Of a stretch of 64,000 bases of DNA, positions 16,208-43,390 are shown piece after piece (position 1 is the first letter of the stretch; the number at the start of each line of letters is the position of its first letter). Both the position numbers and the translations under genes were made by a program. Origin of the DNA: Marsupella aquatica (Eukaryota > Plantae > Marchantiophyta). Below the pieces are notes generated by a model. The model ran no database searches, was not told where the DNA came from, and saw nothing but the letters and a program-made list of their open reading frames with translations. The DNA is taken from contig OZ316893.1 of NCBI GenBank assembly GCA_973895155.1, forward strand, positions 20,092,857 to 20,156,856. Direction: 5' to 3'.

Positions 16208-16552
16208 TGTTGAGCATAGACGACGATTGCAACGGCAAGCCCATGAACCATCCAACGCACAATAGTCGACACAGAGAGATACGTGGTTCACCTCCACATG
16301 AGGCTACGTCCACGGGAACACACAAGAGCTTTACTGCACTCTAGGCCGACCGGCCATACCAAGCATCCACAGCACAAGCTCTCCCTATCTCTCAACTGGC
16401 TCCATAACAATGAACCTGAGTTCCACCTCTCCAAGCAAACACCGCTTGGTTATAGAGTGTGCACAGCATGACTAACCTAACCAAGTCTGCGACTAAGGTT
16501 AGTCTTAACTACGGTACATTCGTAACTCTAGACCTAAGAGTAAATCCTAACA
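16208..16552 (-). repeat. Copia 3' LTR (345 bp); PPT immediately internal (~16553-16563)
   Basis: tgttgagcatag...aatcctaaca is followed by atctccccctt, which reads AAGGGGGAGAT on the minus strand. Confidence 0.96.
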
Positions 16553-16742
16553 ATCTCCCCCTTGACTCTGGTCTAGGGGAGGGTAAAGACTGCTACCAGT
16601 ATGACTGCTCAGCGGGAAGTTCTGGAAAGAAAACCAAACCAATTTTTTCCCTCTTTATAGAGAGTAGACCAAAACTAAGCCGTAGCCTATACAAGGAATG
16701 AGCAAGAGCATATCTCAGTATCTACACAAATGTTAAGTAACC

Positions 16743-19700
16743 CTACTTGTGAGGCAATTGCAAAACCTGCAACGCATCACGGTGTCTAGAAAAACTCTCC
16801 AAAGGAATCACTTTGGTAGAAGCGTCAGCCGGGTTGAGTTTACCATCAATCTTGACTAGCTCAAACATATTATCAGACACAGCCTGCCTGATAAAATGGT
16901 ACCTAATGTCGATGTGCTTCACTCTGCTGTCCATCACCTGGTTCACAGCAAGGTGGAGTGCACTCTGACTATCACAGTGGAGCTTCACATTCCCCTGTGG
17001 CAATCCCATCTCAGTGATAAGTCTATCCAACCAAATCGCTTCCTTTGCTGCTTCCGCTGCTGCAACATACTCCGCTTCTGTAGTAGACTGAGCAATACAC
17101 TTCTGCAAAGTAGACCTCCAACTTATGCATCCACCTCCAAGTGTGAACACATAACCTGTTGTTGACCTCCTCCGATCCAGATCCTGTGCATAGTCAGCAT
17201 CTACATAGCCCATCAATGATCTAACATTATCAGCATGTGCATCAAACAATAGACCATGATCCACGGTACCCTTCAAATACCGAATAATCCACTTCACTGC
17301 TTCCCAGTGTACCTTCCCTAGATTCGACATGTACCTGCTCACCTTGCCCATAGCCATGGTAAGATCAGGTCTAGTGCAAGTCATCAAATACATGAGACTC
17401 CCCACTGCCTTGTCATACGGAACCTTTGACATCAACCCCTTCTCTGTGTCATTCGTAGGACAGAACGCTGATGATAACTTGAAGTGTGGAGCCAACGGGG
17501 TACTTACTGGCTTGCTATTCCCCATGTTGAACCTTGCAATTACCTTCCTCGCATAACTGCTCTGCGTCAACCATAGCTTGCCAGCCTCCAAGTCCCTAGT
17601 GATCTCCATACCCAAAATCCTCTTAGCTGGCCCTAAGTCCTTCATCTTAAACTCTGCACTAAGCAGTACCTTGAGCTTAACAATCTCAAACCTATCCTTG
17701 GCTGCAATTAGCATGTTATCCACATAAAGTACTAAAACAATGAACCCAAAGACAACATTCTTCACCGGTTTAAGATACACACATGGGTCAAACACACTCC
17801 TGTGAAAGCCTTGTGCACGAATCCAATCATCAAACCGCTTATTCCACTGTCTTGGTGACTGCTTCAACCCGTACAAGGATCTCAGCAATCTGCAAACCAA
17901 ATCCTCTTGCCTTTTCTTCACAAAACCTAGCGGTTGTCTCATGAAGATCACCTCTTCCAAGGTGCCATAGAGGAAAGCTGTGACAATATCCATCTGATCT
18001 AGCAGCAGACCAAACATAACAACAAGCACACACAATAGCCGTATTGTTGAGTACTTAGCAACTGGTGAGAAGACCTCATTGTAATCCACACCTTTTTCCT
18101 GTGTGAATCCCTTGGCTACCAACCTAGCCTTGTAGACCTTCGATCCACCTCCTTTGGACTGATCCTTCAGCTTGTATATCCACTTGCTGTCCACCACTTG
18201 CTGTCCCTTAGGCAGCTTGACAAGCTCCCAAGTTTTATTGTCCTTCAGTGACTGCATCCCCATTTGCATTGCTGCAGTCCACTCCTGCTTCTCCTTTGAA
18301 GCACTTACTTCATGAAATGAAGAAGGTTCACCTTCTTCCAAAATCAACGCATCACCCTCATCGTCAGTAACAAAATCCTCCTCTTGCAACTGAGATGAAT
18401 CAACCCACTGTCCATACCTTGGTGGAGCACGTACAGTGCGACCAGATGCTCTTCTAGCCGATGACTCCGGTTGATCTGCGTGTGCTGGTACAATTTGAAG
18501 CTCAGCAGCATCCACTTGCTGCTCACCAGCATCAACAAACTCCTCTGATTCCTCTGGCACAGGAACCAGCTCCATAATTGTAGCAACTCCTTCTCTCTGG
18601 ACATGCACCTCATAACCAATCTCCCTCTCAACGAGATCCGGGATAGGAGATTTTCCTTTGTCAATACGGGAGACCTGAGTATTCTCCCCCTCCTTCAATA
18701 ATCTGGATTCATTGAAGAAAACATCCCTACTGACAACGAGCTTACAGGCAATAGGATCCCATAGCCTATAGGCTTTCACACCACTCTGGTACCCAAGAAA
18801 AACACATTTCTTGGAGGTAGAATCCAACTTGGTCCTATTCTGCTTCGGTGTGAGAGCATATGCATCACTTCCAAAAACTACCAAGCCATGATAGTCTGCT
18901 TGCCGCTTATAGCGCATCTCAAACGGTGTTTTGAAATTGATAGCACTAGAAGGAGAAAGATTTACCAAATAAACTGTGGTATTAACAACTTCTGCCCAAA
19001 ATTCTTGTGGTAAACCTGATTGGCTCAACATACTCCGTGACCGCTCCAACAATGTCCGATTGAGCCTCTTAGCGACACCATTCTGCTGCGGAATATAAAC
19101 TATGGTGAGATGGCGAGTTATCCCCTGTTCTGAACAGTACTCTTCAAATTCCATTGAAATGTACTCCCCGCCGTTGTCTGACCTCAGACTCTTCACCCTT
19201 GTATCCAAACACTTGACCGTGTTTCCAGTCTGATTCTCCACCTGGGCCTTCCACTTCTTAAAAATGGACAAGACATCAGACTTATGCGTCATGAAATAAA
19301 TCCACACAAATCTTGAGTAATTGTCATTAAATGATACATAGTACAACTTTCCAGAGTGTGAGGGAGTCGGGGATGGACCCCACACGTCACTATATATGTA
19401 CTCAAGAACCACTTTAGAACAATGAGTTCCAACACCAAAAGCACGACGATGCTGCTTTCCAAGAATGCAATGCTCACAGAACTCTAATTTACAAGATTGC
19501 AAATCAGAAATGAGTTCATTCTTCCGTAAGATAGCCAAACCCTTCTCACTCATGTGGCCTAGCCGTGAATGCCACAGTTGAGTCATCTCCTCGTGAGACT
19601 TTGTTACATTGGCCTCTCCACATACAGTATTGCCATGTAACACATATAAATTCTTTTGTCTGCTCCCCTTCAAAATCACTGTCTCTCCCGACCTGACTTA

Positions 19701-21059
19701 AAGTTTACCATCAATAACGCTCCATTGATGACCATTTGAATCCAACACACTGAGTGAAATCAGATTCTTACGCATGCCAGGTACATACCTGACTCCGGAC
19801 ACTGTGCGCACAGCGCCATCAAACATTTGAGTCTTCACAGACCCAATTCCCTCAATTTGACATGAGTGATCATTTCTCATCAGAACTGAACCGTTTGAAA
19901 CAGAGTAAGAACTGAAAAACTCACGAATTTAACAAATATGAAAAGAGCAAGCACAATCAAGAATCCACACATCATCTGCTCTCCTAGATGACGTGCACAG
20001 GGCATACCCCCGACTTCATAAAACATACTCATCATTGAGTAAATCAGCTTCTCCATCAACCCTAGCCACATTTGCCGATGAAGTTTCCGCTGCCTTTCCC
20101 TTACAGTCTCGCTTGAAGTGTCCAACTTGGTTGCACTTCCAACATGTCACCTGCCTCCTCTGAGGGGATTTACCCCTGGACTTAGATCTGGATTTAGATC
20201 TAAATTGGGTTCTATGGTCCCTAGTTGGTCGCTGCATACTCCTCCCACGGTTAACATTGAGGGCAGCACCAGATGATGAAGGCTGTGACGTGATGTGCAT
20301 CTTCTGCTGAAGATCATCACTAAGCAGAGAACTTACCATGTCATTGTATGAAATGGTATCCCTATCACGATGCAACAACACTCGTGATAGGGACTGGTAA
20401 GATGGGGGCAATGAACTAAGAAGTTGCAGAGCCTTCGTCTCATCATTCAAAGTCTCACCAAGGTTTTCCAAGTCAACGACCATGTCATTGAAAGCATCCA
20501 CATGGTCTTGCAACTTCGTACCAGATTCCTTCATCCTGAAACTCATCAGTTTGTAGGAAGTGTAGAGCCGGTCAAATGACAAGTCCTTGCGGTGATACTT
20601 GCTCTGCAATTCCACAAACAAGGACATGCAATCCTTATGTACACCTAACTGCTTGATGATGGGAGGCATGAGATAGAGTGTAACACACCACATTCCCTAC
20701 TCCTGCATGCGGTCCCATTGTTTCTCATCAACATCGTCTTCACGAGGGCTCAGCAGTTGGCCCATCCCTGACGCATAGAGCACTCCCTTCACCTGCTTCT
20801 CCCATAGCAAGTAGTCAGAGCGCCCATCATACTTTGTCACTTCATACTTGGGTCCCCCAAGCTTGAAAGTCCTCATCTTCTTCTTTGGCACTACCGTGAG
20901 CTCCGGTAGTAGTACTGCTTTCTCCACCACACGTCGCATCGGTGATGGTATCGGTGTCACGTGCTCTTCCTCTTGCTCCTCTCTCTGCCCCTCAAACCGC
21001 CGCGATGATCCTCGTGCTTCAAGTTCCACGTCTTCAAAAAACTCCTCCGAATCACTCAT
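16743..21059 (-). pseudogene. Copia gag-pol, disrupted
   Basis: Gag with CWKCNQVGHFKRDC knuckle; GAG-pre-integrase LWHSRLGH...CEHC; integrase RSDNGGEY; RT KARLVAKGF, YGLKQSPRQW, YVDN; RNaseH DADYA, STTEAEY, KHIDIRYHF. Stops and frameshifts occur in gag/PR. Confidence 0.95.
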
Positions 21060-22333
21060 ATGAGAAAATCACAAAAAATGTCGTTTTTCACAACTTCTCA
21101 AAAAACTTGAAACTCAACACCGCCGCGTAGCCCACGAAGCTAGGAGTCCAATACTGAAAACCGAAATCAAAATCAAAATTTGACGGAAAAGTTATTCAAA
21201 TTCGGTCGAGGTGGGTAAAACCTTGGGAAACTCCCTCATTTTGACCACCTGAGGGAATAACCAAAATACCAAGTACAACCCGTCATCGGAATTACAATGT
21301 GATCGGTGCGCCGCATTGCCAACTTCAATGGCTACAACCTCGCCGAAAGAGAACCAAAAAAGTTATCGTTCGACGGACAAAATCTTTGTCAGTCGGTCAA
21401 AAATAGCTCTCTGGTTTTTGGAATATTCTATGACCCTTGTACAGGCCCTGTGGGAATTTTGGAAGAACAATCGAGGGGCTAACACGTGTCCTCGAACCCC
21501 CAAAACCCCCTACCACCCTTCGTCGTCGAAATCTGGTCGCGCGCGCAGAAAATACACACGGCAGAATGTACCCTCGACACCAAACGCAAGATATCTCACT
21601 CGGGTTTTGACGAAATCAAGATCTGATTTCAGATTTGGAAACTAGACTCCGAGACGGTGAAGATCAATATAAGAAGCACCCAAAACGAGGAAAGAACAAG
21701 GGAGAAAAAAATTGGTAAAGATGACAGATTTCTCTCATTTGCCATAGCCAATTTCGAATCAGTTTTTCAAAGAGAAAAAATGGTACCTTGTCAACAACGA
21801 ATGTTGATGAATTGCACTTGGTGCCGTCACCAAGTCCAACAAGGTAATTGATTTTTTTTAGCCTTCCTCTTCCATCAAAGAGCCAATCCCGGACTCAAAA
21901 CAATCGTCTTGCCTCAATCTCTCCGTTGAGTCAAAACACTTGACACTTCTCCCTCCGAGTCGATTGCCACGATAAGAAACCCTGATCAGGCAAAAGAGGA
22001 CTCCATAGCCGGTCAGAAAATCAGAATGCTTCTTTTGCTCCTCCCGTCGTACACGGTACACACTTGGTAACAAATCAGCTACCAAAACAAATAGCTCTTT
22101 GTCGTGACATATAGTATCGTAGCCATAGTGTATCAGAAACATACAAGTCACCGGCAATGCATATGTGCAAGCTGCTAGCAACCAACATGCATAGAAAAAG
22201 TCCAATCACATTCACAGGTGCCAAGAAAAAGCAACTGAGGTGGTATGTACGTAGTGGAGGTGTAAACCTCTGTATCCCCCCCCAGACCACAGCCAAAAGG
22301 CGGGCTGAAGAAAAGTCAGATAGCACGTGGAGC

Positions 22334-22468
22334 ACAGGAAGGGCAAAACCATAACCCTTCTGGCACCTGGGTAAGTTCAGGCCGAAGGCAGAAAAGATGG
22401 TACCCTCCATTGCAATTGTCACACAACAGCATCTGGTCAGCATCATCAATTTGCAAACACACTTTGCA
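22334..22468 (-). other. PHD finger at the integrase C-terminus
   Basis: CKVC-x11-CDNC-x4-HLFC-x14-CPSC (C4HC3), including MLLCD and VPEGLWFC. Confidence 0.93.
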
Positions 22469-25400
22469 AGGGTAGTCCACAGGTGGAATCCAAGTAGAAG
22501 TCACAATGGTGGGATCCAAGTTAGGCAGATGACAAGGGGTGCAATTCTTGACATTGTCAGCAATTGTGCGCCCATCTGCCCCTTGTAACTCTAGCACTCC
22601 AGACGGTCGAATAGCTTTGACCCTGAGAATAGTGCGACTGGTAGAGGTGTCTAGGGTGTCGTTAGCTTGCCGCTGCAAGTACACAAAATCTCCCACTTCA
22701 AACTTCCTGACCTTGGGCTGAAAAGTGCCCCCTCGCGTGTGTGCATAACGCAGTGTGTCCCTGTGTTGTGCAATGGCCAAATTCTCCATGGCCATGGGCA
22801 TAACCCTCCTGAATAGGGCAACCCTCTCAGAGATCACATCAGACCAAGTCACAGCTGAATCCAAGTCCACCACCTGAAGCATGTGAGAAGCAATAGCAGA
22901 AGGTGGAACTGGGTGACAACCAAACAACAAGAAGTAGGGAGAAAAGTTAGACAGTGATGCATGTCTGGACATCCTATACCCCATGGCAATGTAGGGTAAG
23001 GCCAGGTCCCAATCCTCCTTGTTTTTGGTGAGACAGATCTTCCGAAGGCCCTTCTTGCATGTCTGAACCATGCGCTCTGCCAAGCCATCTGCCTGTGGGT
23101 GATCTCGTGATGTCCGGCGATGATCAATGAGAGCCTGATCAAGCAGCTCCTGGAACTCTCCTCTAAACTCTGAGCCCTGGTCAGTGAGACATTCTGCACA
23201 AGCTCCAAAGCGGCTGAGAACTTGTTGCAAGAATGTCTGGCTGGTGCTACAGGAGGTCTTATCCGGCAATGCCACAAGTTCTATCCACTTGGAGAAATGC
23301 TCTATCATGATCATGATGTAGAGATTACCCCAAGATGTGAGGGGTAATTCTCCAGCCAAATCACATGACCAACGATAAAACATGCCCTGAATAGGGAGTG
23401 GATGAAGTGTGGGTTGCCGAGATGTGAAAGAAGTCCTTACCCTATCACACTGCTCACACCGGGCAATAACATCTCGAACCTGGCCATGCATGCCTCTCCA
23501 ATGATAATGGGGGACCAAGAGGCTATAAGTCCTCTTAACACCAAAATGACCAAGCTCAAAATGTACCTTACGGATAAGGCCAACCCTCTCATGAATGGGT
23601 GGAACCACCACTTCCCTGTCTGGCAAGCAGCGCACAAGATGATCTCCCTTCCACAAGTAGCGCTTGGACCTTTGCTGAATTCGGTCTCTCTGGGCAGCAG
23701 TAACATGGGTGGGGTACTCCCCATCCTGCAGAAATCTCAGAGTGTCGCTGTCCTCCCATATGTCCACCACAGGTTGGTCAACAATGTAGCATGGCAGCAA
23801 AGCAAGATAGGTAGATGCATGAAATGTAGGCAGGATGGAAACCTGGTCAAAATCCTGCCGTGCATCTGAGGGATCATCAGAGGCAATCAAAGGGCTGCGG
23901 GACATAGTGTCAGCATTTTGATGTGTCACACCAGGCCTATGAATTACCTCAAAATCATACTCCTGGAGTATGAGTGCCCAACGAGCAAGCTTGCCAGTAA
24001 GCTTGTCGTTGGTCATCAACCACTTCAAGGGCTGGTGGTCGGTGTAGAGAACAAACCTGGTCCCATAGAGGTAGGGTCTGTAATGTATGACAGCCCACAC
24101 AACAGCAAGGCATTCACCCTCATAAGAAGAATAATGACTCTCTGCCTGATTGTTGCTCCTGGATGCATAGGCAATGACGTACTCTTTACCTTCCTCATCA
24201 TGCTGGCCCAGAATGGCACCAATCCCAAGGGCACTCCAATCTGTGTGTAGCACAAAGACCTTGTTGAAATCAGGTCTTCTCAGCACCGGGTATTCTGAGA
24301 GCTTCTCCTTCAAAGTGGCAAATGCTACCTCAGCATCTGTACTCCATGTCCAAGTCACATTCTTTTTCAACAAAGCATACAATGGGTGTGCAATGGTACT
24401 GAAATCTTTGATGTAGATCCAGTAGTAATTGCACAACCCAATAAAACTCCTCAAAGTGTGAACATCGGTAGGAGTGGGCATTTCCAAGATGGATACCACC
24501 TTGGCCCAGTGAGCCATGGTTCCATTTGGAAGAATGCGATGCCTAAGATATACTACTGATCTGACAGCAAATTCACACTTCTTGGGGTGTATCTTTAGGT
24601 TCACCTTCTTAAGCCTCATGAATAGCTCCTCAAGGTCAAGTAGATGCTGGTCAAATCCTTTGTTGTGGACCAACACATCATCAATGTAGCATTTCAAAAA
24701 CTCAGCACCTTGAAGAACCTGGTCCATGACTCTTTGAAAGAATATGGGCGCATTCTTCAAGCCAAATGGCATCACCAACCACTCCCATAGTTGGTTACTA
24801 CCATGGAAAGCTGTTTTCTTGCGGTCCTTTGCAAGCAGCAAAATCTGGTTGAAGCCTTGCCTTAGATCCACAAGAGTGAAGATGTCTGAGTCTCCAATGC
24901 TGTCAAATAGCTCCTCTGGCCGCGGCATGGGGTACCTGTCATGGGGTGTGACCAGGTTCAATGGCCTGTAGTCCCCACACATGCGCTTCTCTGTCCACAA
25001 TCCACTGGAATCCTTCTTTGCTGGCATCACTGTAGCTGCCGCAAAATCTGATGTAGATGGCTGAATAAGACCAGCTTCATAAAGCTCTTGGCACCTCTCA
25101 TCCACCAGCTGCCACTCATGCTTACTCAAACGGTGTCTCCGCCTAAAGATAGGTGTTTCATCAGCCAACTCAATGGAGAACTGCATAGTCTTGCACTTAC
25201 CCAAGTCCTTCATAGAGAAAGCAAACACATTCTCATGCTTGAGGAGCAAATTCAGCAGCTGGTCCTTCTGTCTTTTACTCAGGTGGTTGCCCATGATAAA
25301 TGTGTAGTTGGCAACACTAGGAATAGGACCTGATGTACTCGTGCTTGAAGAGCCAGAAGTGCCAGCCTCTCCACTGTCCAAGCTGCTAGCATGCTGCTGA

Positions 25401-25639
25401 TAAGGTGATGAGGCCTCTCCAAGGCCTGCTGTATCTGTTGCTCTGGTCTGATCCACACCATGAAACTCAGAAATAATGTCAGCCACATTACAAGGGACCT
25501 CCTCCCCCCCAACACTTGGACTGAAGCGGTGAGTGTTGAATAGAGGTAAGTGCACCTGGTCTGGATGCCATGTAGCAGCACTGTGGAGGGGTAGGGCTGG
25601 AGCTCCTAATGCTGGAGGAATGTACATCTGAAAAAGGAT

Positions 25640-26590
25640 GCAAGTGACCAGAAGCCAAGTGAGAGCATTGAGATCCATTACCCTGCCAAGTAAAGCATTC
25701 CTGGCCAGCCTGGTGATTTTGGTGTGACCTGTAGTACCGGGTTGGAAGCCCATAGCCCGTTCTCTCTCCTCAGGACTAGGTTCATCCCATGTACCGGTAG
25801 AATGTCGATAAACCAGCCCAGGACCATCACCCTGAAAAGCATGTGCACCTAGAAAGGACACAAATGTAGGCCAAGCAGCACGGGGTTGTCCAATGGTATT
25901 AGCTGGATACCAAGGTGCTGGCTCTTGCCATGTAACTGGTTGGCAAGAACTGTCAGGATCCAAAATCTGGTCCACTGTAAGGTTAGTGTCCCTGGATGTG
26001 TGGTGAAGAGCCATCTCCAGCAAGGAAGGTGGTGCAAGGTTAGTCCAAAAGTTACGAAGACGATGTGCATAAGAACCACAGTGCACTGCATCAATGAGAA
26101 GGGGTGGTCCCAAGTAGTGCTAGACCACACTAAAATCCTCTTTGACCTGTGGACGCTGGTCAAACTGAGATGGAGTATTCTCAATGATATAACCAACAGG
26201 AGGATAAAGGGATTGAGCCTAGGTGAGAATCTGAACCAATGCTGTGAAAAGGCCAGAACGAGAATCATGTAGTCCAGCACCGTGACTAGCAGTTGAAAAC
26301 CCTTGGCATTCCCAACCAGCTATGATCAAATCAAGGGAGCCAAGAAGGGTTAAGTGCCGGTGCTAGACAAGCTGGATATCTGAAGGAAAGAAAGAAAATG
26401 CAGACTTCCATGCACTGTGTGGAAACTGCTAAGGAAATCGCTCTGAAAATTACAGCAGACGGGATTCAGCCACTTGCCTTGCACCTGGATCAATATCCAC
26501 ATAGATGTACTGCTTCACCACCATGCCAGACTGTAGGAGAGCTTCCAGGCCTGTAGAAATGCCACCAAAAAGCTCAAGCAATGTAAGGCC
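25640..26590 (-). other. DNMT3-like C5 cytosine methyltransferase domain within the polyprotein frame
   Basis: Reading through in-frame stops gives motif I LELFGGISTG, II YVDID, IV DLIIAGWECQGFS, V DSRSGLF, VI YIIENT, VIII IDAVHCGSYAHRLRNFWTNL, IX EERERAMGF and X RLARNALLGR. Confidence 0.9.
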
Positions 26591-29500
26591 ATCTGAAGGA
26601 GGAGTCCATGTAACTGGTGCGCTCAAGATTGGGGCTATTGGTTGTCCATGATGCTGCCCAAGGTCCTCAAATTTGTGCAATGCAGCCACCAAAGGTCCAT
26701 GGGCTGCTTGGAGCCGTTGTACCACCTCTGGTTGATGATCCACGTTGCTGGAAAGTGCTGCTATACGTGCAGCAGCATGTGCAGTAGCCACCTCATCATC
26801 ATCCTCCTCAATCCAATCCTGCAATGGGTGGTTGACATAGGTAGCTGTGTGCACTGCTCTCAACACACAGTGGTGAGCCATAGGGGTATGGGCACCATGC
26901 AAATCCAGTGGAATGTATCCCAAGTGTGAGCCATTCGTATGCCAATCAACTCTGTAGTATGCATGCTCATGCCAGTTGTCAATGGTAAAACCTGGTGGGA
27001 ACAAAGCCTCCTGGCCAATGAGCACATCATACGTAGTGGCATTGGTAACCAAACATCTGACTGGGAAATGCAGTTCCTGATCTGTACCTCCATTAAAAGT
27101 GAGAGTGAGTAAAGTAGAACTCTCACCCAGCACATCCTCCACAGTGCCACTAGCAGTCTGAATATGCCACCTGGATGGCTGTAAATGATCAGTCAGCAGT
27201 CCCATCTTCTTGGCAAACTGAATGCCCAAGATTACTGGTTAAGCACCTGTGTCTAGCATGACCACCTGAGGAGTGTGACCCTCCAACTTGACTGCTGAAT
27301 TCCTGTTGTCAACAATGGCAATGGTGGTGGAAACTAAAGTCCTGTCACTAGGCACCACTTTTGGCAAATGATGAGGTACCTTGTGAAGGGAGTTAGTGTC
27401 CATGGTCTTCCCACTCAACAGCATAGCCAAGAAAGATGGAGCAGCATGACCAGAATCAAGTGTAGCTCTGGTCACACAATCTGCAGCAATACTGTCATCT
27501 CTACCACTGGAAATCGGTACTGGGATAGCCAAACCAGTGGAAGCATGCAATGGAGAAGGAGAAGGTCCAGTATTAACATGAGATTGGACCTCCAAAACCG
27601 GTGTCACAGGGGCTGATGAAGAATGCAGTGAGCCCTCTAGCGCTCTGATGACAGCTCTAGCATCCAGCTGTAAATCATGGCAACTGAAAAGTGGAGTGGT
27701 AAGAATCCTTTGTGCCATACCGGAGGTGAAATGCTCAAGCAGCTCAGGAAAAATAACTCCCTGTGAAATGTCAGCAGCACCTGGTGGTGGAATGGATGTA
27801 GCTGCAGCTCCCTCCCCCCTCGCCAACAAGGTGCGCTCTTCAGCAAGTATGAGTGGCTGAAAAGATTGGGGCATGACAGCCCGAGCTCCCCGGGCTCTAG
27901 TCATAGGACCAGCAGCAAGACCATCAGCTTGTACAATGCGGCGTGTGGGAGCAATACGGGAGGCAGCACTGGGCTGCTGGTAAGCAAAATAGGAAGGGCA
28001 GAATGAATCTGAAAATGCTGCTGTAAGGCCAGGCTGTGTAGCAGAGGACAGCACACACTCACCCATATGAGCATCAAATGGCAAGCCATAGAAAGAGCGG
28101 GGTAGGGGTGCTGAACTGTCAGTGGTGCCTGGGCCAGGGATGGGTTGCACGTGACCAGCCGGTTGGGAAGGACCAGAAGAGGTAGTGGACTTGCCTTTGA
28201 TGTTGGCAAGTTGGGTACGTAATGACTCAACCTCATGAGTCAGAGACTGGAGTTGAGTTGCCTGTGCGTTGTGAGCCTCCTTCTGAGCGGGTTGCTTCTA
28301 TTGCTGCTTGGGCAATTTGTTAGCACTGGATGCTTTGCCACTGGAAGGAGGAGCAATTGATGCAGTAGGAGCCCTCCTAGCTGGTGGTGGAGTGGAAACA
28401 GGAGCAGGATATGAGTGGCCTGCTGTCGTAGCTGCTTCCTCTCGGGGAATTTGGCAAAACAAACTGCCTCCAAGTGGCCCACTTTCCCGCAAAATCACAA
28501 GACAGGTCCTCAGCAACAATATCACATTCATTAGCCTTGTGATTAGGGTTACCACAGTAGTTGCAAGATGGCAGCATGAAAGCAGCATGTGCGGGCTTGG
28601 TCTTGGAACCTTACTGTGGCACACGGGAAGGAGTGGCCAGTGTAGGAGTAGCAGCCTGGTACCTGGATCGCGGTGGACGCGCAATACTGGCCTCATAATG
28701 TGCATGGGCCAACTCAAGTTTCTCAGCAGTGTCATAGACATTGAGCAGGGTGTAGCTGTCTCCAAACTCTGAGAATACTTGCTGCAACACTTGCGAATGG
28801 AGAGCTGGGGTGCCCTCCAACGCGCGAAGATAGCGGTGAGCAGCTTCCAGGTCAGTGATGCTCTGGGTGTCTTCCTTCAGCTTGAGAAGCCGGCGATATA
28901 ACATCTTCAATGTTTCATCGCGTTGCCTCACAAATGTGGCCAACTGCATGATTTTGTCAGCACTCTTGATTGGGAATTCCAATTCAAGAACCTGGAAAAA
29001 CTCAGCCACTGGATCAGCAAAGGCAGGGGAATCAATGGTGGGAGAAATACCTGATGTAGCCTGTGCCAAGACAGTGGGAGTAACTGGTGCAGTGGTGGGA
29101 ACTGGAGTAGGAGGGGAAGTGGCAGGAGCAGCAGCATGGGCTGCAATGGCATTCTATAATGCCAGTTGTGAGGCAGCCGCAATTGCAGTGGCATAGGCAG
29201 GGTTAGGCAATTGTGTGACAGCAAGCAGCCGTTGAGAATGCTGCTCATGCACATCCAAAGCCTCGTGGTGCACATACCTGGCTAGCTGCTTAAATGCAAA
29301 AGCATTTGTGAAATTGCTGCCATACTTCAACTCCAATTCGTAAACGACAGTGTAGAAAGTGGATTTGAACTCACGCAAAGAGACAGTGCCTGGCCGCCCA
29401 CTGAAGCGCTCAATGCGGCTAGATGAGTGACTGGCATCCATGCTGTATGTCGGTGAAGTTGGAACAATCACTGATGTAGAAGGAGAAAAAGGCAAAGAAG

Positions 29501-30204
29501 TGATAGCAGGCTTCGGGGTAGAGGTGAAGCGACCGCCAAATGTAGCAGAAGGGTTGCATGGTGTGGGTGTTGCTGCTGTCTACTGACATCGTCAAAATTG
29601 CCGAGACTCCAATGAAATTGGCACCAACGGTCGTGGATCACTCCGTAAGTGGTACCGGGGTGTCGGTGGCGATGAGCTGCTACCTCCCGGCTCGTCGGCT
29701 GACATGCTGCATGCTCACCCGGGGTGCCAATGGGAAAGAAATTGACAAGAAAAAGGAATGGCAGCCCCAAGGCTAGGAAATAAAACCCACAAAGGAGACA
29801 AACGGTACAAGGCAGCAATGTGTCAAATGTGTAAACACACAGAAAAACCGTCACAAAGAAAAATCGTCGGCAAAGGAAAACCCCTTAAAAACTCGGGAAA
29901 GGCTTAATGTTGGCGGCAATAAAGAAATCCGGGAAAAGAAACTAGAAGTGCCCCCCCCCTTAAGTGTATACATCGGGCCCCTATGTGGACCCAAAAACTG
30001 GCAGGAAAAGGGAAACCAAAGAGGCGCGCGTCAGCAGGAAAAGAAAACCGGGCCAAGTGGGACACAGAATCTGAAGTGTATACACATCAGCCCGATGTGG
30101 ACCCGAGAGATGGAAACAGGTCGATCGTCGCGCGGCGAAAAAGCGAGACAAGCCGAAAAAGGCGAAAATAAAACGGGAAGAGTGAGGCGAAGAAAAGAAA
30201 TGAG

Positions 30205-30660
30205 GCCTGTGCATAGGGCTTCGCACCCCCCTCCTTATGAGCTCCTGAAGAGGTGGGGCTACGAGCTCCCCCTCCCCTCTTAAATGTGCTGGGTGCCTTG
30301 TGCCTGGCAGGACTCCCAAGGGGAGTCGACGTGAACTCCCCCTCTCCCCTTTAATTCTTCATAGGGCCTCGTGCCCACTCCTTGCGCTCTGCCTCGGCTC
30401 TGTCTCCCCCCTCTTTAATGCTGCTATCTGGGCTTCGTGCCCTACAGGAGGACTCCCGAGAAGGGAGTCGTATGTACTCCCCCTCCCCCTTCAATGCAAC
30501 ATAGGGGCTCGTGCCCTATCCTGGCACACTCGCTCCCCTCCCCTCCTTAAATTGCAGCATAGGGCTTCGCGCCCTCTCCTGGCACACTCGCGCTGCCTTG
30601 TGCTCGGCTCCCCTTCCCCCATGCTTTAATTCTCCATAGGGCTTCGTGCCCTCTGTCCTC
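30205..30660. repeat. Imperfect tandem array in the Gypsy 5' non-coding region
   Basis: About six copies of (cata)gggcttcgtgccct-like cores interspersed with ctcccct...ttaa motifs. Confidence 0.75.
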
Positions 30661-31848
30661 TCGCTTGCTTATGGCAGGGCAAAAAGAAAGGGAGTCGAGG
30701 CAGGAAAAACGAGCGAGAAAATGCCGAAAAAGGGAAGAAACCTCCCGGATTGAGGAGGGACTACGGCCGATAAACGGAGATACAGCCGAGGCAAGGGCAT
30801 GGTGCCCTATGCACGGCCTGTGCAGGGTGTCGTGAGGCAACAAAACGGGCTCAACGGCAGTTGTGGCCGAAAAGTGGCAACAAACACAAAACGGCCCCAA
30901 AAGCAGTCGAGGCAACGGTTGATGCAACGTCGGCAGCAGCAGGTTGTGGCCGGAATGTGAAACCCGGGCCTCCCAAGGGAGTGTTATGTGTATACACTTA
31001 AGTATACACATAACACCACAATAAACCCATAACTTTTAACTCGTCACTCCGATGTCCGTCGAAGAAATTGCAATGGCTTCACCAGAAATTGTCGAAATCG
31101 TCACGAGCAATCTTCTTCCCGTCACCGCTAACTCGACAGTTCTTCTTGAATAAAAAGCGTAAGAGAAACAATCGTACTGAAATCGAATCGAAAACCGGCG
31201 GGATGCCAAGATCGGCCGGGAGCATCTAATGAATCACTGTGTGAATCCCGTGTACGGAACTGACGAGCACTGTCTGAGCTCTGTCAACAGCGATTCAAGA
31301 AGAACTGAAGAACGGCAAAGAAAAACATGCCCTAAGTAGGACCGGGTCCAGGCGTCACACTAACAAACCCCTTTTGCTTCAAGAACAGCCCAGACTCGCT
31401 ACAAGAACATGACACTAACTCAAGTAGTACACTAGCCCTAACCATACCTAGCGGGCATGCGAGGGACATGCCGATGTGCACAAGCGGCACTGTCCCTCGG
31501 CATGACATCTTCCCGATCTACAAGCAGAGCTACAACATGCAATGCCTCTTTCACCGTAGAGCTCAAACCGTCGAGAAAACAAACTCTGGTCCCTCCTCCA
31601 AAAAACCGTCAAACACGAATGTTGCCAACTTTCTTCATAAAATCCAGAACGACAAAAACTTAGATCTCTCCACACCACGAGCTCCGTTCAGCAATTTCTT
31701 CACACCGTTAGAAAGCTCTTGCCCCGATCTATCCGTTGAGCCCATAAACTCCAAGTTCCATGCGACGAAACTCCGGGAAATCCACCGACACTCAACACTA
31801 GAAAAAACCATCACAAAATCCTGTCACGAACACACGTCACCTCCCAGA

Positions 31849-31863
31849 CATGCTCTGATACCA
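31849..31863 (-). other. Copia primer-binding site (tRNA-iMet)
   Basis: The minus strand reads TGGTATCAGAGCATG 2 nt inside the 5' LTR. Confidence 0.95.
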
Positions 31864-31865
31864 AT

Positions 31866-32209
31866 TGTTGAGCATAGACAACGATCGCAACAGCAAGCCC
31901 ATGAACCATCCAACGCACAATAGTCGACACAGAGAGATATGTGGTTCACCTCCACATGAGGCTACGTTCACGGAACACGCAAGAGCTTTACTGCACTCTA
32001 GACCGACCGGCCATACCAAGCATCCATAGTACAAGCTCTCCCTATCTCTCAACTGGCTCCGTAACAATGAGCCTGAGTTCCACCTCTCCAAGAAAACATC
32101 GCTTGGTTATAGAGTGTGCACAACATGACTAACCTAACCAAGTTTGCGACTAAGGTTAGTCTTAACTACGGTACATTCGTAACTCTAGACCTAAGAGTAA
32201 ATCCTAACA
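31866..32209 (-). repeat. Copia 5' LTR (344 bp)
   Basis: About 15 substitutions and 1 indel versus 16208-16552 (hand count). Confidence 0.96.
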
Positions 32210-33710
32210 ATTTCCAGAGTTTTCACTCGCATCTGACTTTGGCAAGTTTTGAATTAGACTTTAATAGCCTCATGACCTTGATGCAACTATTCACTAAATG
32301 GAGAAGGGCAGAGCTTAATCTTTGAGAAGAGAGAAGTCCGATTAGGAAGGGAAGTTGGTAGTCATGTTGTGTTGGACAAGTAGGATAGATTTTATAGTTT
32401 GCATTGTTTAGATTAAATTTTCTCATGAAGTCATTGTGGACCCATTCATTGGCCTGAGAAGTTTGGCATTTCTTCAACTGCCACAAGAATACTTTGCTTT
32501 GCAAGCCAAAGTTGACGATGTGGTTATCACAAGCAGTTCTCAAAATTAGGCTTTTTCTCTACATGCAACCAAATTCTCAAGCTAAGTGAGTTAGAATCCG
32601 TGGCAAGTCCATTTGAAACCAGATCAATTTCTAATCAAATGAAATGTATCAGTTCGTTGAGTTCAAGTTCCGACCATAGCTACAATTTGCCTTATTTGCA
32701 AAGGTCGGAAATCGTATTCCAGGTGCCAGCTACCCTTTAACAAGTAAGTTATCAAGTTAGTTATTAGTCATTGTTTATTATATGAAAAATACTTTAAAAA
32801 TCTTTGAATTTAATTTTTAAAATTGGATACGTAACTAAAACAGTTAATATAGTGACAGTTTTACCAATCTTGCTCTTTGCATTTCTTATTTTTTACAATC
32901 TTTTTACGGCGTGGCATACCAAAATCTACACCGAAATTGACACAAATACAAATGAAAAATGTAAATATGATTCACTGACGAGTCTTGTTTGTTGTGGTTG
33001 TTGTTGATGTGGCACGCTCTAGTGCGAGGAATTTTGGAAAGGACCTTTCATGGGGGTTACATAATAATCAAAAATAAATTTATTTAGTGAGTGCAGGTTA
33101 TATAGGTTATGTATAGGATAAGAACTGTTTGGGCACACGGCTACTAGGTTGTAATCCAGTGACCAGAAAGTGAAGAAGAGTTGATAGACAGCAACCCGGG
33201 AAGCTTTTCCGAGCAATCCTAGAACAAGGTTCGGTATAGAACCCTAGCTTAGGCAGTCCTTATGAACATAAATACTATCCGTAAATCATTTTGGGCATGA
33301 CAATATGGATATAAAAGAGGCCTCCAGAAATCCTTACACACTGGTAAGTTTGGTTCCGTACACATTTTACAGGTGTGTAATCAGTTTCAGAGGTACCGGC
33401 TATTCACATAATCTATTGCCCTGAATACACTTTTTTTGGACGGTGATTACATACTAGAAATGAGGTCTGGGTTTAGGGTTACAGGGTGGTAAACCGTCCT
33501 AGAATACCACCCTTCCTAGAAATCTCTGAAAAGTTTCCTGGCTGCCACTGATCAGCTTTTTTACCCTTTCTGGTCATAGGGTTATAGGGTGGTAGCCTCA
33601 GCTCTGACTGCAGTTATCCTGTACTTAGTCTCCACTCCCTACTCTGTAATAGTGCAGGTACTAATGTGTAATAGTATAATGGCAATCAAAAGATACTCTC
33701 CAAAGCATTA

Positions 33711-34069
33711 AGCACGAGACTCAATCTCGATGCACATTGATGGCCCCTAATCGTACGCTAATGGCATTAGGAGGTTTCGGGCAGTTTAGGCTGCCACGTC
33801 GCCTGCCCCAACAGGGACACCCTTGAAGGCGCCCCTACACCGGCCCTGCACCTCCGCTCATGCCAGGCCCTAAATCCCGCGCCTCATGGGCCCCGACCCT
33901 GAACCTAAAGGCCCTGGGCCCTGCACCTTCCCGTCACGCCTCCCTCCCGTCGCGACTTCCACCCCGTCGCTACATAACTTCCCGTCGCCACACAACACCC
34001 CGGCCCGTTGCCGCACAACACGAAAATACGCCCTCCCCTACGATTTCAAAATTGCCATGAGGTCGCAAT
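33711..34069 (+). repeat. Left TIR (359 bp)
   Basis: agcacgagactcaatctcgatg...gaggtcgcaat is the reverse complement of 43391-43749 with about 8 mismatches. Confidence 0.97.
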
Positions 34070-34221
34070 CCTAGTTCCAGACTCGTTTTAGGGTCGACAA
34101 CAAGGCGGACATTGTCTCGCATATCTTCTACGCAGATTGTTCGCAGCTTTAGAAGGGCGGTGAGAGATTGGAGATTGGCAAATCCAGGCAAGTCTTTCAG
34201 CCTGAATCATCTGCGAGTGAA

Positions 34222-35076
34222 ATGACGACTTTGACTGATGTTCATCGTGCTGTTCAGGACAGATATACGTTGCTCGTAGGTCCAATGCACGTTCAAATTC
34301 TTAATTTTGCAGCTCCGAACCCGGTTCCCAAGAAGTTTACTTACCGTGGATGCACTCAAAGAACCGTGGGAGGAATGTGTAAGGTGTCCATTGAAGGACC
34401 AGATCATAAGCATTGTCTGCACGATTCCCAGGTTAATGGAAATTATGTGCACATGTTCCGTTTTCAGCTCATTGTCTCAGACGACACTTTACAAATGAAC
34501 TGTCGCACACCTGCATTACGTGCTTCTATTTGGGATGCAGCGACTAATCTATTGCAGACGTCTGCATCCGATTTGGCTGCTATGGATGCCGCTGACCAAT
34601 TTCTGTTGGTGCACGAATATATTAAGGACCTGCCGGTTGTTAATGTTACAATCAGGGTGACGCATGGTTTTGCTCATCTGCAGGAGCTTGAAATCATTTT
34701 CGCCCAGAGCATTATGGCACACAGCCGTATTTGGCAGCCATCGTTGACGCCCAGGCGCGGTGTGCAACGGAGCACTCCAACAAAATCAAGGGTCACGTTG
34801 CCTTCAGCCATCCCACCTAGTCCTCTTGAAATTACTCCACCGCGGGTGGTTGTTCCTACAACACCATTTCTTGCGCAAGGTACAAGCTCCAAGGAAGGCA
34901 CACAGTACAAGACAGGCTCATCGCCATCGCTACAGACATCCGAAGGCGCCAGTGGAGTTTATGATGAATCGAGCAGCGAGGTTGTAGATGACAATGGGAA
35001 TATGATGTCTATTGTTAAGCGACTAGCAGATGCCTTCAGTGCATCACTAGATTTTTACTCGTCCCACCGCCCATAA
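34222..35076 (+). CDS. Transposon-borne RPA1 C-terminal (DBD-C) OB-fold-like protein with S/P/T-rich tail
   Basis: FTYRGC...CKVSI...HC...FRFQLIVSDDT...ASIWDAATNLLQTSASDL resembles the Rep_fac-A_C pattern (YxAC..C.KK...C....Y.L...I.D.T....F...AE.L.G.SA.EL). Start codon uncertain. Confidence 0.6.
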   Translation: MTTLTDVHRAVQDRYTLLVGPMHVQILNFAAPNPVPKKFTYRGCTQRTVGGMCKVSIEGPDHKHCLHDSQVNGNYVHMFRFQLIVSDDTLQMNCRTPALRASIWDAATNLLQTSASDLAAMDAADQFLLVHEYIKDLPVVNVTIRVTHGFAHLQELEIIFAQSIMAHSRIWQPSLTPRRGVQRSTPTKSRVTLPSAIPPSPLEITPPRVVVPTTPFLAQGTSSKEGTQYKTGSSPSLQTSEGASGVYDESSSEVVDDNGNMMSIVKRLADAFSASLDFYSSHRP

Positions 35077-35732
35077 GAGTAGATTATCCATAGACATCAT
35101 AGTGTTGTGGTATAGTGGCTGTTCTCTGGCAAAATTTTGGCCTTAAACCCTTTGCCTCGTTTTTTACACAATGTAATCGAGCCCGCTCTTCATGCGAGTA
35201 GTACATGAATACTGAAACTGAAATTGGTTCATGTTTTCCTGGATTTGTACAATGCTTACACTATTGTCAACAAATACACATGTGACTGTCTTTGGTTTAG
35301 GCTCACAACAAATACATAATAGAGTTTTGCAGATATGTGTGACCCGTCGTGGGAACTGACTCATTGCAGTTTGTGGTTGACTGGCAGGAATAAGGCGTTG
35401 TTTTACTAAAATATCCCGTCCAATCATGGGTAGCACTAAGAAGAACAAGCAGGTACTAACCACAGCTTACGCTAATGCCACATTTCACATTCTTGTAGTG
35501 TTACAAAACTTTGTGTGAGCAGAACATTAGGGTAATGCGACTACTCGTTTTGCGCATCATAGTACCATGCCATTGTACACGCTAAATACAAGGGAGTCAT
35601 GTACTCCACTGGTGCACATTAGGGTAATGCAATATCTTACTTAGTGTCTGTTCCTAATGTTCAAAGCCCCAACCTCATTACTGCACGTCGTGTTTCCTTT
35701 AATTGCAGCTTCTACTTGCCCAAACCTGTCGC

Positions 35733-38642
35733 ATGCAGGGGGATGATGTGGCTCAGGACATGACATTTGATATGCCGCCGACTCGGAAGTCTACCCTGCG
35801 GCAAAACAAGCCCAAAGTTTTGTTAAAAGAGCCCGAAATAGAATCCGAGTCCGAAGAAGATTTTTTGCCTCCCTCGAAGCCTAGGAGACCCTCACGTCGT
35901 TCTTTGGTGAAGTTACCATCCTTGAAATCCGCGGCCGCTGAGAAAGTACCTCATACCCGGGTTACTCGACAAACTATGTATAAGGATACACACAGCAAAG
36001 GCCGAAGGACAGCATCTACTTTAAGGGCGCACGCAAAGAAGGCATCAAAGGATTGCATTGACAACGATGTCATGCAAAGTACTTCTGAAGGTGATGATTC
36101 AGAAGAGTTTCTAGACAGCAGCGAAACGGAACATGGACCGATCTCATGGAGAACTACATACAAGGTCGATGCCACTAAGGTGAATTCTTTATGGATTGTC
36201 GGACCCAATGTTGGGCTCCACTTTTCAAATACATTGTTTGCCGCAATTTAATTATGCCATGGCATGCTCACTCAGAAAATTCATTGCAGGTAGCAAAGCA
36301 GAAGTCTCAACATGGCAATGGAGTGGAGGGCGAGCATTATACCTTGTTTGCAAACGCAGTGGTTTGCAAAGTTGCACCTTGCAGAAATCGAGTGTTTAAA
36401 ACAGAGAGGACCTTTGGCAACCATGTTTTCAAAAAGCATGGGCTGATATCAAGTGGGACTTCTATGTCCTTGTATGCCCTTGATAGCGAGTCCGAAGAAA
36501 GACGTCAGCTCTACAATGCAAGGAGGAGGAAGCAGCCAGGCGCGGTTGTCTGCACTTCATACTATGAGGCCAGGGGATCCATGAGAGCCAGGTGGAGCCA
36601 AGCAAAGTATAGAATGAGGTAAATCTGACACAAATTACTCATCCACATTGTGTAACATTTCTGACATCATCCACACTAATGCCATTCGAGATTTGTGTAA
36701 GGTGCATTTCTGACATTAATCAGACTATTGCCATTCTGGATTTTCTTGGCATGCAGGGCCAGTATATTCAAACGCTGGGTGACTAATTTCGAAGACAACC
36801 TCCTAAAACATCCTCGTCCAATTGTGACAGAGGAAGGATTACTCATTACTCTACTGAAGCATGTCATGCCTAGTCTTGGTTACGACCCTTGGAATAGTTT
36901 GTTGATAGTGAAAGATTTCTCTCAACTGGTGGAGTTGTTGTCTCTATGCCACTCAAGTGCTTCTGTTGGTGCTTGGACTGATACGTTGTTGAAGGAAATT
37001 GAGGCAGGGTTACATTGTCATTTGGACAAACACGACCTCGCGACACTGCATTCTGCAGGGACTGTGCTTGGTGCAATATTTCATAGTGCGTCAGCCACGG
37101 CTAGTCATGCTCCACACCTCACAGTTGCATTGGCAACACATAGAAAATCTATTTGTGAAGATGCAATTGGTTGGCTTAAAAAAAAGAAGGACGTTCTTCT
37201 ATGGGAAACCAAGCACGGATGGGGTCTGTACGAGGTGAAGGCCGAGATTGAGTACCAATCATGGAAAGCTAAGGCAAAACCAAAGAGTTGCGCTACAACT
37301 CTAGGTAATCTTGTGAAGTCATACTCGGCGTTCAAGGGATGCACCGATGCAGAGGCTAGATTGCAGGTATGAATCCTTAAGTATTTACATCCACCTTTGT
37401 AATTTAAGTTGCGTTATCTGAATTGAGCTTCCTTGTATTGCACTGGCAGTAATGTTTTGTTCAACTTGCAGGTTGTAAAGGACAGCGTTTGGATCGACAC
37501 TTCAGATGATGGTGGACCCGCTCCTAAGGAGAAGAGTCGAAAAGCTTTGCGTAACAACAAGGTGAAAAACCCCCAAAAAATGCAGGAAATACCAGCATCA
37601 CTCACAACTGAAGAAGCCGTATCACTCGTGGCAGGTGATGAAGTCCCAGTATTTGATAAATTTTCCCCTCAGCACTTGGCAATTGCCTGACGACCCTGCA
37701 ACAAGTCAGTGGATCCAAAAACAAGACCGTCTAGAGGAAGAGCAGGCGGAGTGCAAGCGAAAGAAGATGGAGGAACAAGAACAGGCAGACTTCAAACGTG
37801 CGAAGATGGACGAATTTCTCCAGCAGGATGCACTTGCAATTGCAGTTTATCATCCACGTAGTGGTGCCGGTTCTGTTCTTGAACCAAATTGGCCATTGCA
37901 TTCAGACAGTGTCAATGACACCTTCGAAGCACCCATTCCAAGCAATGATGACAATTTCAGCCCGCCAGAAGAAAACCGGAGAACGGACCTTGCTCAACAA
38001 CGGGTTTGGATTGTTCACCCGAATGGAACAATCAATTGCAATGGGGACATTGATGATTGCGTTTTGCCCGAGGCCCACCAAGGAGGGAATGATGTTGGGA
38101 ATGATGTGGAGAATGATGGAATGGATTTGGCTCATCACCCACTTGCTTTTTCTGCTTGTATTGGATTATGCTCGTTGTCACAATTGCCACTCCCGGAGAA
38201 AGAAGCCAAGCTATCCTACAAAGTGAGTGAAGCGCATGCAACAATGGTTGGGGATAGCTGCAGTGAAGATGTTGTTTGTCCTGTGGGGGGGACTTCGCCT
38301 CTGTCACATGTCCCACCCTCAATTGTGGTGTCAGAAGACCAGCCCCAAACTTTTCCCAACAGTACAGCATTTGTGGATGGTCTGTGTGATAATGTGCAAG
38401 CCTTGTTCGCAACTAGTCAGATTCGAAAGATCCTAGATGAAATGGCTGATGGCATTGATAGTATATTGAGAGAAGAGGTGCCACTCTCGGACATGGTACT
38501 TGATCTGTTTCCAAGTTGCCCGGCCTTGTCCTCTGAATGTCACGAGCTTGTACCTCATGTGGGCAATGCAAATCCGATACATGATTGTGCTGAAGATGTC
38601 GTGCTTAAACTAGGGAGCATTATTGTTGACAATCATTTTTGA
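35733..38642 (+). CDS. Transposon-borne multi-exon gene of unknown function with a C2H2-like finger; probable frameshift near 37680
   Basis: Successive long ORFs bounded by GT/AG (about 35733-36179, 36290-36618, 36756-37366, 37472-38642); CKVAPC...FKTERTFGNHVFKKH. Confidence 0.5.
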
Positions 38643-39264
38643 ACAGTGTCACTGTTACTTAGGCAATTTGAAGAACTCTGCAAATGTTGTACAGTGTGCT
38701 CTTGGCATACATAAAGCATTTTTCAGTTGTGCAGATTGTATTTGCAATGTATTTCACAGACCTGGAAAAGTGTCCAAACACTCTTAACATATTAGCAGGG
38801 ACAAACATTATCCTTGCATTGCCGAGTGTAAAATTATTGTATTGCATGCAATGTTAGAAATTTCGGATGGGTTTAAAGCTTCAAATTGAATGAGATGACC
38901 CGTGTTATTGTACACAACAATACAAGCCAAGTACCGAAAATGTCCAATGTCCCGACTCAGGATCCTTCACCTTGAACACTTCAACCCAGTGGATTGCCAA
39001 GATTCACTAAAATTTGGAATGGTCGGCTGGAACAACACATCCTTTCAAATACACTGTGTGTGCACAATTGACTATTCAGCATAAACCTCGTTTTGCAGTG
39101 TGCGAATTTCATAGCGCGGGTGCAACAATTTGCACCAAAGTAGCGCAGGTACATCATACCAGATAGAATGAAATGTCCACAGGACTTTACTGATGATTCA
39201 AAATCGGATTGAAACATTGTATAATGAAAACTTGGAACATTATGTGCCATACTAATAAACTATT

Positions 39265-43311: not shown

Positions 43312-43390
43312 GGTATCCAGCAATTGCTCGTGCAAAGCACGAACACACACTTACAAATGCGTCGGATTTTGCTGCCACAGAGTGCGCGCC

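Follow-up and report, generated by a model that had tools for sequence, protein, structure and literature searches.

Among the described retrotransposons closest to the element reported here (publications are represented throughout by their accessible parts), Gypsy-7a_cRei of Chlamydomonas reinhardtii carries a PHD finger and inserts between genes 2.6 times above chance; its authors propose a targeting role, and the idea that a Gypsy PHD finger steers insertion is already in print for this element (PMC9940879). PHD fingers are common accessory domains of Chlamydomonas transposons (PMC8557442), are frequent in fusions of transposable elements (TEs; 10.1101/2021.11.30.470311) and have a precedent in Ginger1 (PMC2836005). 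DNA methyltransferases (DNMTs) are also known from retrotransposons. Those of dinoflagellate DIRS elements methylated CG in yeast, and the enzyme of KnitGypsy-Dnmt3 from Klebsormidium nitens gave an inconclusive negative (PMC5890265). DNMT3 retrotransposons are mentioned elsewhere, with no PHD finger in the accessible text (PMC12344493), and the name Gypsy-DNMT3 is used in a preprint (10.64898/2026.05.21.726589). An opinion article holds that land plants such as tracheophytes lack transposons that encode methylases (PMC6338049). Here we describe a stretch of 64,000 nucleotides (the window) from the liverwort Marsupella aquatica (assembly GCA_973895155.1, contig OZ316893.1, positions 20,092,857 to 20,156,856 of the forward strand). 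It contains a 9.4 kb Ty3/gypsy element (22100-31507) with TG..CA ends and a 4-bp TCTT target-site duplication (TSD), which encodes in order a protease (PR), a DNMT, reverse transcriptase (RT), RNase H (RH), integrase (INT) and a PHD finger. The DNMT frame is continuous with that of the RT, through five premature stops. The PR-RT-RH-INT order, DDE integrase, TG..CA ends, short TSD and polypurine tract (PPT) are those of Ty3/gypsy elements.

The PHD finger and its H3-contact residues

The finger consists of the last 54 residues and the stop of a 1267-codon frame (22316-26119, translated from the minus strand):

22316..22480, minus strand: C4HC3 PHD finger closing Pol at its C-terminus, with the stop codon (first Cys codon at 22468, last at 22336)

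Each of the eight zinc ligands is kept, with the C4HC3 pattern intact, and the Pfam PHD family (PF00628) matches residues 1218-1262 with an E-value of 3.6e-11 (43.3 bits against a cut-off of 24). Along the frame, Pfam places RVT_1, RT_RNaseH, Integrase_H2C2 and rve, and then PHD, with no spacer domain between integrase and finger; Pol stops five residues past the last PHD Cys. No chromodomain was detected by Pfam in the window Pol, which has the PHD finger in that place, and the chromovirus hallmark is absent. A phmmer search of the PDB with the finger retrieved 108 distinct sequences at E<=0.01, the top 60 of which are all PHD-bearing, with CHD4, WSTF, EHD3, ATXR5, BAZ2B, Lid and KDM5 as the leaders. 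In an AlphaFold model of the integrase end and the finger, built from a 63-row alignment (mean pLDDT 82; a single-sequence model gave pLDDT 50), the finger superimposes on the ATXR5 PHD at 0.8 A over 49 columns and on the BAZ2A/B PHDs at 1.1-1.7 A. Compared with 69 loci, the window sequence differs less at the amino-acid level in the finger (pN 0.17) than in the linkers (0.23 and 0.32); synonymous sites are saturated (pS above 1), which leaves dN/dS undefined, and pN alone was used. The window PHD finger is genuine, intact and beyond chance.

To place the finger among characterised readers, the contact residues of KDM5A-PHD1 (10.1101/715474) were transferred to it by distance from the zinc ligands. 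KDM5A D312, essential for R2, is D in the window finger, L308-L310 correspond to MLL, the A1 pocket V330/P331/G333/W335 recurs as V/P/G/W, and Y294 and D306 are again Y and D. In an alignment, the "acidic wall" residue E1944 of BAZ2B (PMC5415848) lies opposite a D of the window finger. The same features were surveyed across the family, in which 144 PHDs were matched in 180 proteins. Asp directly follows Cys3 in 133 of the 144, M or L stands at Cys3-3 in 141, P at W-4 in 125 and G at W-2 in 113. The residue at His-2, which we take to be the position of the methyl-lysine cage Trp, is non-aromatic in 143 of 144. The window finger itself possesses the Asp after Cys3, the P-x-G-x-W pocket and the acidic wall, and has no aromatic cage.

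Since most of the H3-contact residues of KDM5A-PHD1, BAZ2 and ATXR5 are kept and the methyl-lysine cage is absent, the window finger is likely to be a reader of the H3K4me0 type; the ATXR5 PHD, its nearest compact match in fold, prefers unmethylated K4 (PMC5499861). ATXR5, BAZ2A/B and KDM5A-PHD1 resemble it in the R2 and A1 pocket residues, in the lack of a methyl cage and, for ATXR5 and BAZ2, in fold. They are, however, host enzymes with measured binding, whereas the window finger is known from its sequence and a model and differs at two contacts. The preliminary description of this DNA, made from the letters alone, had claimed a canonical C4HC3 PHD at the end of the polyprotein, with the signature of fingers that read the unmodified H3 tail; both claims are borne out, the first by the Pfam match, the eight ligands, the PDB matches and the fold, the second at the level of sequence by the contact residues, the PDB matches and the likeness to ATXR5 and BAZ2.

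The finger and the methyltransferase across relatives

The methyltransferase that accompanies the finger lies upstream in the same polyprotein:

25661..26593, minus strand: DNMT3-like C5 cytosine methyltransferase in the RT frame, catalytic Cys and EN motif kept, five premature stops

With X written at its in-frame stops (26452, 26431, 26365, 26221 and 26122), the window DNMT matches Pfam DNA_methylase at 2e-6. In the PDB its best matches are DNMT3A/3C/3B, with an E-value of 4.6e-9 for DNMT3A against 0.15 for HhaI. Its motif order, I-IV-VI-VIII-X, is the non-rearranged one, and an unbroken DNMT-RT-RH relative (P0121) is 70% identical to this region.

Relatives at the DNA level were obtained from a metagenome scan, of which 21 of 64 parts were covered and in which at least 600 stretches were confirmed; the best 80 loci were used, originating from six assemblies, with 7 loci that duplicate another's insertion site. 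A scan of viral contigs yielded no relative. The PHD finger is present in 72 of the best 80 loci, and the remaining 8 stop at or before the end of the integrase. A DNMT that is mostly complete occurs in 48 loci, of which 45 carry the finger and the other 3 run off the contig.

At the protein level, a query with integrase and finger, which is biased towards PHD-bearing proteins, retrieved 327 proteins, with a Pfam PHD in 118 of 120 among the matches listed; named relatives among these matches are from Haematococcus, Volvox, Pleodorina, Chlamydomonas eustigma and Calypogeia, and none of the protein relatives listed bore a Klebsormidium name. The DNMT-only query retrieved 69 proteins, 51 of which extend beyond the integrase. 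A PHD finger is carried by 47 of these 51, and the co-occurrence across relatives that the preliminary description had looked to is found. In the pooled set of 296 proteins, 142 possess RT, RH and INT in this order. The algal-type order RH-DNMT-INT-PHD accounts for 86 of them and the order of the window, DNMT-RT-RH-INT-PHD, for 7. One of the 142 has a degenerate finger, one has none and two are cut; four combine a PHD with a long N-terminus devoid of DNMT, and 41 begin too near the RT for the presence of a DNMT to be judged. Two proteins (P0061 and P0063) read protease-RT-RH-INT-PHD, the DNMT being absent.

Trees were built with FastTree and midpoint-rooted, without outgroups, and no order of events is claimed from them. 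In the DNMT tree, the DNMTs placed before the RT (12 rows) fall together on one side of a branch with support 97, and the integrase tree divides the two domain orders in the same way. The PHD finger travels with the integrase, because it stays behind INT both in the DNMT-less proteins and in either DNMT order. Globally, the pairing of PHD and DNMT is a rule of the family, extending from green algae as far as liverworts, but neither domain is strictly bound to the other; the range of DNMT3-carrying Gypsy elements is widened from one charophyte to chlorophyte algae and liverworts. Marchantia polymorpha encodes gag-PR-DNMT proteins of the family without RT (P0123, P0126, P0129 and P0150, annotated as hypothetical; gene models Mp4g09160, MARPO_0063s0090, 0204s0011 and 0020s0163), and the role of the DNMT and any bias conferred by the finger are therefore testable in a model plant.

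Five algal-type relatives (P0044, P0071, P0134, P0145 and P0157) possess 350-400 C-terminal residues beyond the PHD or in its place. These tails show a weak PTM/DIR17 Tudor-like match (PF21743, E 2e-4 to 0.1) and an adenine-methyltransferase-like one (PF02086, E 0.004 to 0.4), with DPF-x-G-x-G and SPP motifs; relatives with such tails could be dual-methylase elements with a PHD finger instead of a chromodomain. In the ESM Atlas, the top cluster for 22319-23605 consists of integrase+PHD proteins (80 members, score 0.95). It has few recorded phyla, mostly Mollusca, and these proteins may be genuinely animal or stem from algae present in animal samples. Positions of Gln (546), Arg (190) and Trp (153) account for most of the premature stops in the coding domains of loci L001-L080, which is the pattern expected from methylated-cytosine decay in CHG/CHH plus CG.

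Possible roles of the finger

Judging from the conserved contacts and the domain orders, we consider it fairly probable that the PHD finger tethers the integrase to H3 tails unmethylated at K4, with the DNMT acting separately. Protease cleavage would leave the finger on the integrase and free the DNMT; the finger would read H3A1/R2/K4me0, and insertion would be steered off H3K4me3 chromatin, much as chromodomains give chromoviruses an insertion bias. The DNMT, which probably works apart from the finger, would methylate CG, probably on cDNA. Several observations nevertheless weigh against such tethering. The KDM5A contacts E305 and D315 are changed in the window finger (to A and N) and D292 is offset by one, and across the family the acidic wall is conserved in part, 92 of 144 PHDs being acidic at either of two positions. 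Four of the 51 DNMT- and integrase-bearing relatives have no finger, and the flanks of relatives contain little recognisable TE coding sequence (2-4% of bases, with 13 probe proteins). Moreover, the ATXR5 PHD mostly tunes cofactor binding and adds little nucleosome affinity (PMC5499861), so reader domains need not target. A weak point in favour of the main reading is that CpG over codon boundaries is rarer in the inner pol (observed/expected ratio, o/e, 0.09; 6 seen) than in the surrounding copia element (0.28; 13 seen), a single comparison whose contrast host enzymes could cause.

Around 22 loci with 9-kb flanks, the median CWG o/e is 0.23 at 0-1 kb from the element and climbs to 0.85 at 7-9 kb; it is lower near the element in 19 of the 22 (p 2e-4). 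This gradient was rejected as evidence for targeting, since post-insertion selection or methylation spreading gives the same picture and the comparison has no control element.

The same contacts would also suit a finger that docks the integrase on any nucleosome through the H3 A1/R2 anchor, raising efficiency with no preference for chromatin state; a heterochromatin bias, if any, would then come from post-insertion selection. In line with this, the A1 and R2 residues are the best kept in the family and the K4-side acidic residues vary, while target duplications lack an obvious motif and flanks are diverse. The closest solved relatives (ATXR5, BAZ2A and KDM5A-PHD1), however, reject methylated K4, largely via main-chain pockets, and we regard indiscriminate docking as unlikely. 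Still further from the histone tail, the finger might serve as a structural zinc module for multimers, bind a host chromatin protein or act at the internal attachment site described below. It directly follows the C-terminal beta domain of the integrase, and integration ends inside a predicted LTR (long terminal repeat) may need extra machinery; yet the H3-binding groove is conserved besides the zinc ligands, and the four PHD-less relatives keep intact integrase frames. A non-histone job seems the most remote of the explanations considered.

In animal DNMT3, the ADD reader lies on the same mature polypeptide as the catalytic domain and contacts it. The preliminary description had proposed that the element may have convergently rebuilt this pairing of a DNMT3 with an H3K4me0 reader; the finger would then bind or recruit the element's own DNMT and tie methylation of a new copy, or of the DNA flanking it, to chromatin that is unmethylated at H3K4. 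The window DNMT is indeed DNMT3A-like, the finger accompanies it in 47 of 51 proteins of the DNMT-only search, and in the 86 proteins with the algal-type order RT-RH-DNMT-INT-PHD the DNMT adjoins the integrase and could stay fused to it. Conversely, about 1060 residues, RT and RNase H included, separate the two domains in the window type, and Marchantia-named and similar relatives have a gag-PR-DNMT protein without RT. Each domain also occurs without the other (DNMT without PHD in the four of 51, PHD without DNMT in 4 proteins), and the DNMT has shifted within the polyprotein while the PHD stayed behind the integrase. Because the pairing is not obligate and RT-RNaseH separates the domains, an ADD-like partnership is weakly supported; we hold it to be improbable, and tethering of the integrase is the better reading.

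If the PHD finger does steer the integrase, it would represent a second chromatin-reading route of LTR retrotransposon targeting in plants beside chromodomains, and one that recognises the lack of an active mark.

Element architecture, setting and described systems

The remaining parts of the element and its host are as follows:

16208..32209, minus strand: host Ty1/copia element (pol 16743-19697, gag 20016-21068)
22096..22099, plus strand: target-site duplication TCTT, left copy
22100..22275, minus strand: terminal repeat B, the 3' end of the element, closing with CA; four runs show loose ends at 22099/22100 and 22275
22276..22283, minus strand: polypurine tract (G run) directly before repeat B, seen in the sequence and also in relatives
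22481..22810, minus strand: integrase C-terminal region, helix and small beta domain (model secondary structure; conserved over 73 loci, pN 0.128)
22811..23599, minus strand: integrase H2C2 finger and DDE core, catalytic D, D and E kept (PF17921 E 3.5e-13, PF00665 E 1.9e-12)
23957..24346, minus strand: RNase H (PF17917 E 4e-38)
24545..24994, minus strand: reverse transcriptase core, YIDD motif (PF00078 E 2.5e-25)
27002..27292, minus strand: aspartic protease, DTG motif, one in-frame stop at 27241 (PF13975 E 1.5e-6, X at stops)
28298..29579, minus strand: gag-like region, CCHC knuckle, stops and frameshift (translation; DNA homology to 29-36 loci)
31137..31151, minus strand: predicted primer-binding site of self-priming type, directly after A (inverted repeat)
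31150..31507, minus strand: terminal repeat A (5' end, starts TG), from joints 22275>31150 and 31507>22100, ends and TSD
31293..31307, minus strand: self-priming arm inside A, perfect 15-nt complement of 31137-31151
31508..31511, plus strand: target-site duplication TCTT, right copy

The small beta domain of the integrase is, by its position, presumably SH3-like. Pfam gave no match to the gag-like region on the window open reading frames, and the name gag is likewise suggested by position. Self-comparison revealed no LTR pair in the inner element: ends A and B are unrelated, and the repeats are split instead. Contigs from public runs contain the joints A-B (22275>31150) and B-A (31507>22100, run X2), and the empty-site joint 22097>31511 occurs in 2 of 4 runs; the element therefore spans 22100-31507. 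Loss of its LTRs by decay is ruled out by the intact TG..CA ends and TSD, and a tRNA-like site near 29730 is ruled out as primer site, since it lies 1.4 kb inside the element, whose true end is at 31150. The window copy is dead, with stops in gag, protease and DNMT and no second A repeat, a point absent from the preliminary description. At 29834-30851 and 30981-31016, a GC-rich block with 55-62 bp repeats lies beside a perfect 15-bp hairpin. Contig depth in the block is far lower than elsewhere in the element in every one of the four runs, by about 40-fold in three of them, which suggests a rare insert or subfamily segment; no target duplication of the block was found in the sequence.

The 3' ends of the best 80 loci read B-A-B in 32, B only in 30, are cut after A in 1, too short in 4 and without B in 13. 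Both 3' forms carry 4-bp duplications, and the window copy is of the A-coding-B form. Among the 19 loci scored for TSD (of 24 with both ends), all four positions match in 10 and three in 6, with no obvious motif in the target duplications of relatives. A different complementary pair occurs at the same two places in relatives, about 30 nt after a TATA box (L002, L020, L032, L061, L063 and L079), and the self-priming complement score is at least 10 in 18 of 24 loci, control stretches reaching at most 9. That the sequence differs and the pairing is kept points to self-priming of the Tf1 type, a mode known for Tcn1 (PMC6317226).

The reverse-transcribed LTR would accordingly comprise B+A, from the PPT to the priming site, and the TG/CA integrase ends would lie inside this predicted LTR, at the B-A junction. 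In 33 loci, integrase-type ends face each other at this junction over a two-base spacer (AC 15, GC 7, other 8, unclear 3), and the GC spacer makes it a perfect 10-bp palindrome; the A-B junction unites the predicted cDNA ends with small variable indels. Cutting by the integrase at the palindrome would yield both integrated forms, A-coding-B and A-coding-B-A-B. A symmetric two-LTR-circle model was rejected: under it some 5' ends should read A-B-A, and of the 24 loci with an A at the 5' end, 22 with more than 600 nt of upstream sequence, none shows a B there. We infer a replication scheme with internal attachment, which is incomplete. Tentatively, all this may outline an ancient class of the green lineage, high in copy in bryophytes, which primes itself, is cut at a 10-bp palindrome in its LTR, lands by its PHD finger on H3K4-unmethylated nucleosomes, delivers DNA that its own DNMT3 has CG-methylated beforehand and, in algae, adds a Tudor-like domain and an adenine-type methyltransferase.

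The host copia element has LTRs of 344-345 bp (16208-16552 and 31866-32209, about 95% alike) and a 5-bp duplication, ATTTC; the gypsy element is inserted in its 5' untranslated region. The best full-length named relatives of the copia element by identity are from liverworts (Calypogeia 68-69%, Marchantia 70%), most angiosperm matches showing 52-57%. In four runs, the 3' end of the gypsy element borders on many different, unrelated sequences (loose-end agreement 0.42-0.54); the family is therefore dispersed, and the diverse flanks rule out targeting of this copia element by the family. About 30% of the remaining window consists of two obvious transposons. At 33709-43751 lies a Mutator-like DNA transposon of 10 kb, which is bounded by terminal inverted repeats of 361 bp (98%) and shows weak matches of the SWIM / ZSWIM-RNaseH-like kind; 52205-56413 is a long decayed fold-back with arms about 70-80% complementary and its centre near 54500. 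The preliminary description had placed the copy inside another retrotransposon, rightly so given the copia LTRs, the ATTTC duplication and the empty-site joint in two of four runs, and had read this nesting as consistent with chromatin-directed integration. One copy is uninformative in this respect, flanks are diverse in four runs and the window is transposon-rich. Of that description as a whole, the genuine PHD finger at the position of a targeting domain, its H3-reader signature and the co-occurrence in the family stand; the nesting argument does not, and the ADD-like pairing is weak.

In the literature searched, mainly openly accessible and mostly at listing level, we found no description of the DNMT3+PHD rule, of bryophyte members, of a self-priming signal that covaries, or of an internal palindrome at which the integrase ends lie within the LTR. 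The PHD-tipped integrase of Gypsy-DNMT3 elements thus appears under-reported. The surprise is limited, because a reader and a writer in one LTR element and the PHD finger as a Gypsy accessory have already been published.

Chromoviruses, including Tcn1/Tf1-sushi (PMC6317226, PMC12477314), also have a histone reader at the integrase C-terminus, and Tcn1/Tf1 share the self-priming predicted here; the window element differs in its PHD finger instead of a chromodomain, its split repeats and its DNMT, and the accessible parts of neither paper mention a PHD. EpiLTRs (10.64898/2026.05.21.726589) likewise unite a DNA-methylation writer and a histone reader in one LTR element. Their reader is a chromodomain, their DNMT is sister to DNMT4 and they possess a DAM; their authors separate them from Gypsy-DNMT3, and the accessible text mentions no PHD. 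The window element does not show the EpiLTR combination of DAM, DNMT4-like DNMT and chromodomain, its DNMT being DNMT3-like. Gypsy-7a_cRei (PMC9940879), compared here by its description, is also a Gypsy Gag-Pol element with a PHD finger and an intergenic bias; its figure legend gives the domains RH, PHD and INT, in that order, and no DNMT. For KnitGypsy-Dnmt3 (PMC5890265), the word PHD is absent from the accessible text and three supplementary files, although Fig. 4c may show one. It shares with the window element the Gypsy domains and a Dnmt3-related DNMT in Pol, and its DIRS-like A-coding-B-A-B layout recurs in the family, B-A-B being found in 32 of the 80 loci; the window copy has the short A-coding-B form, like 30 of them. 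By its DNMT and repeat layout, rather than by a tree, the window element appears to belong to the Gypsy-DNMT3 kind.

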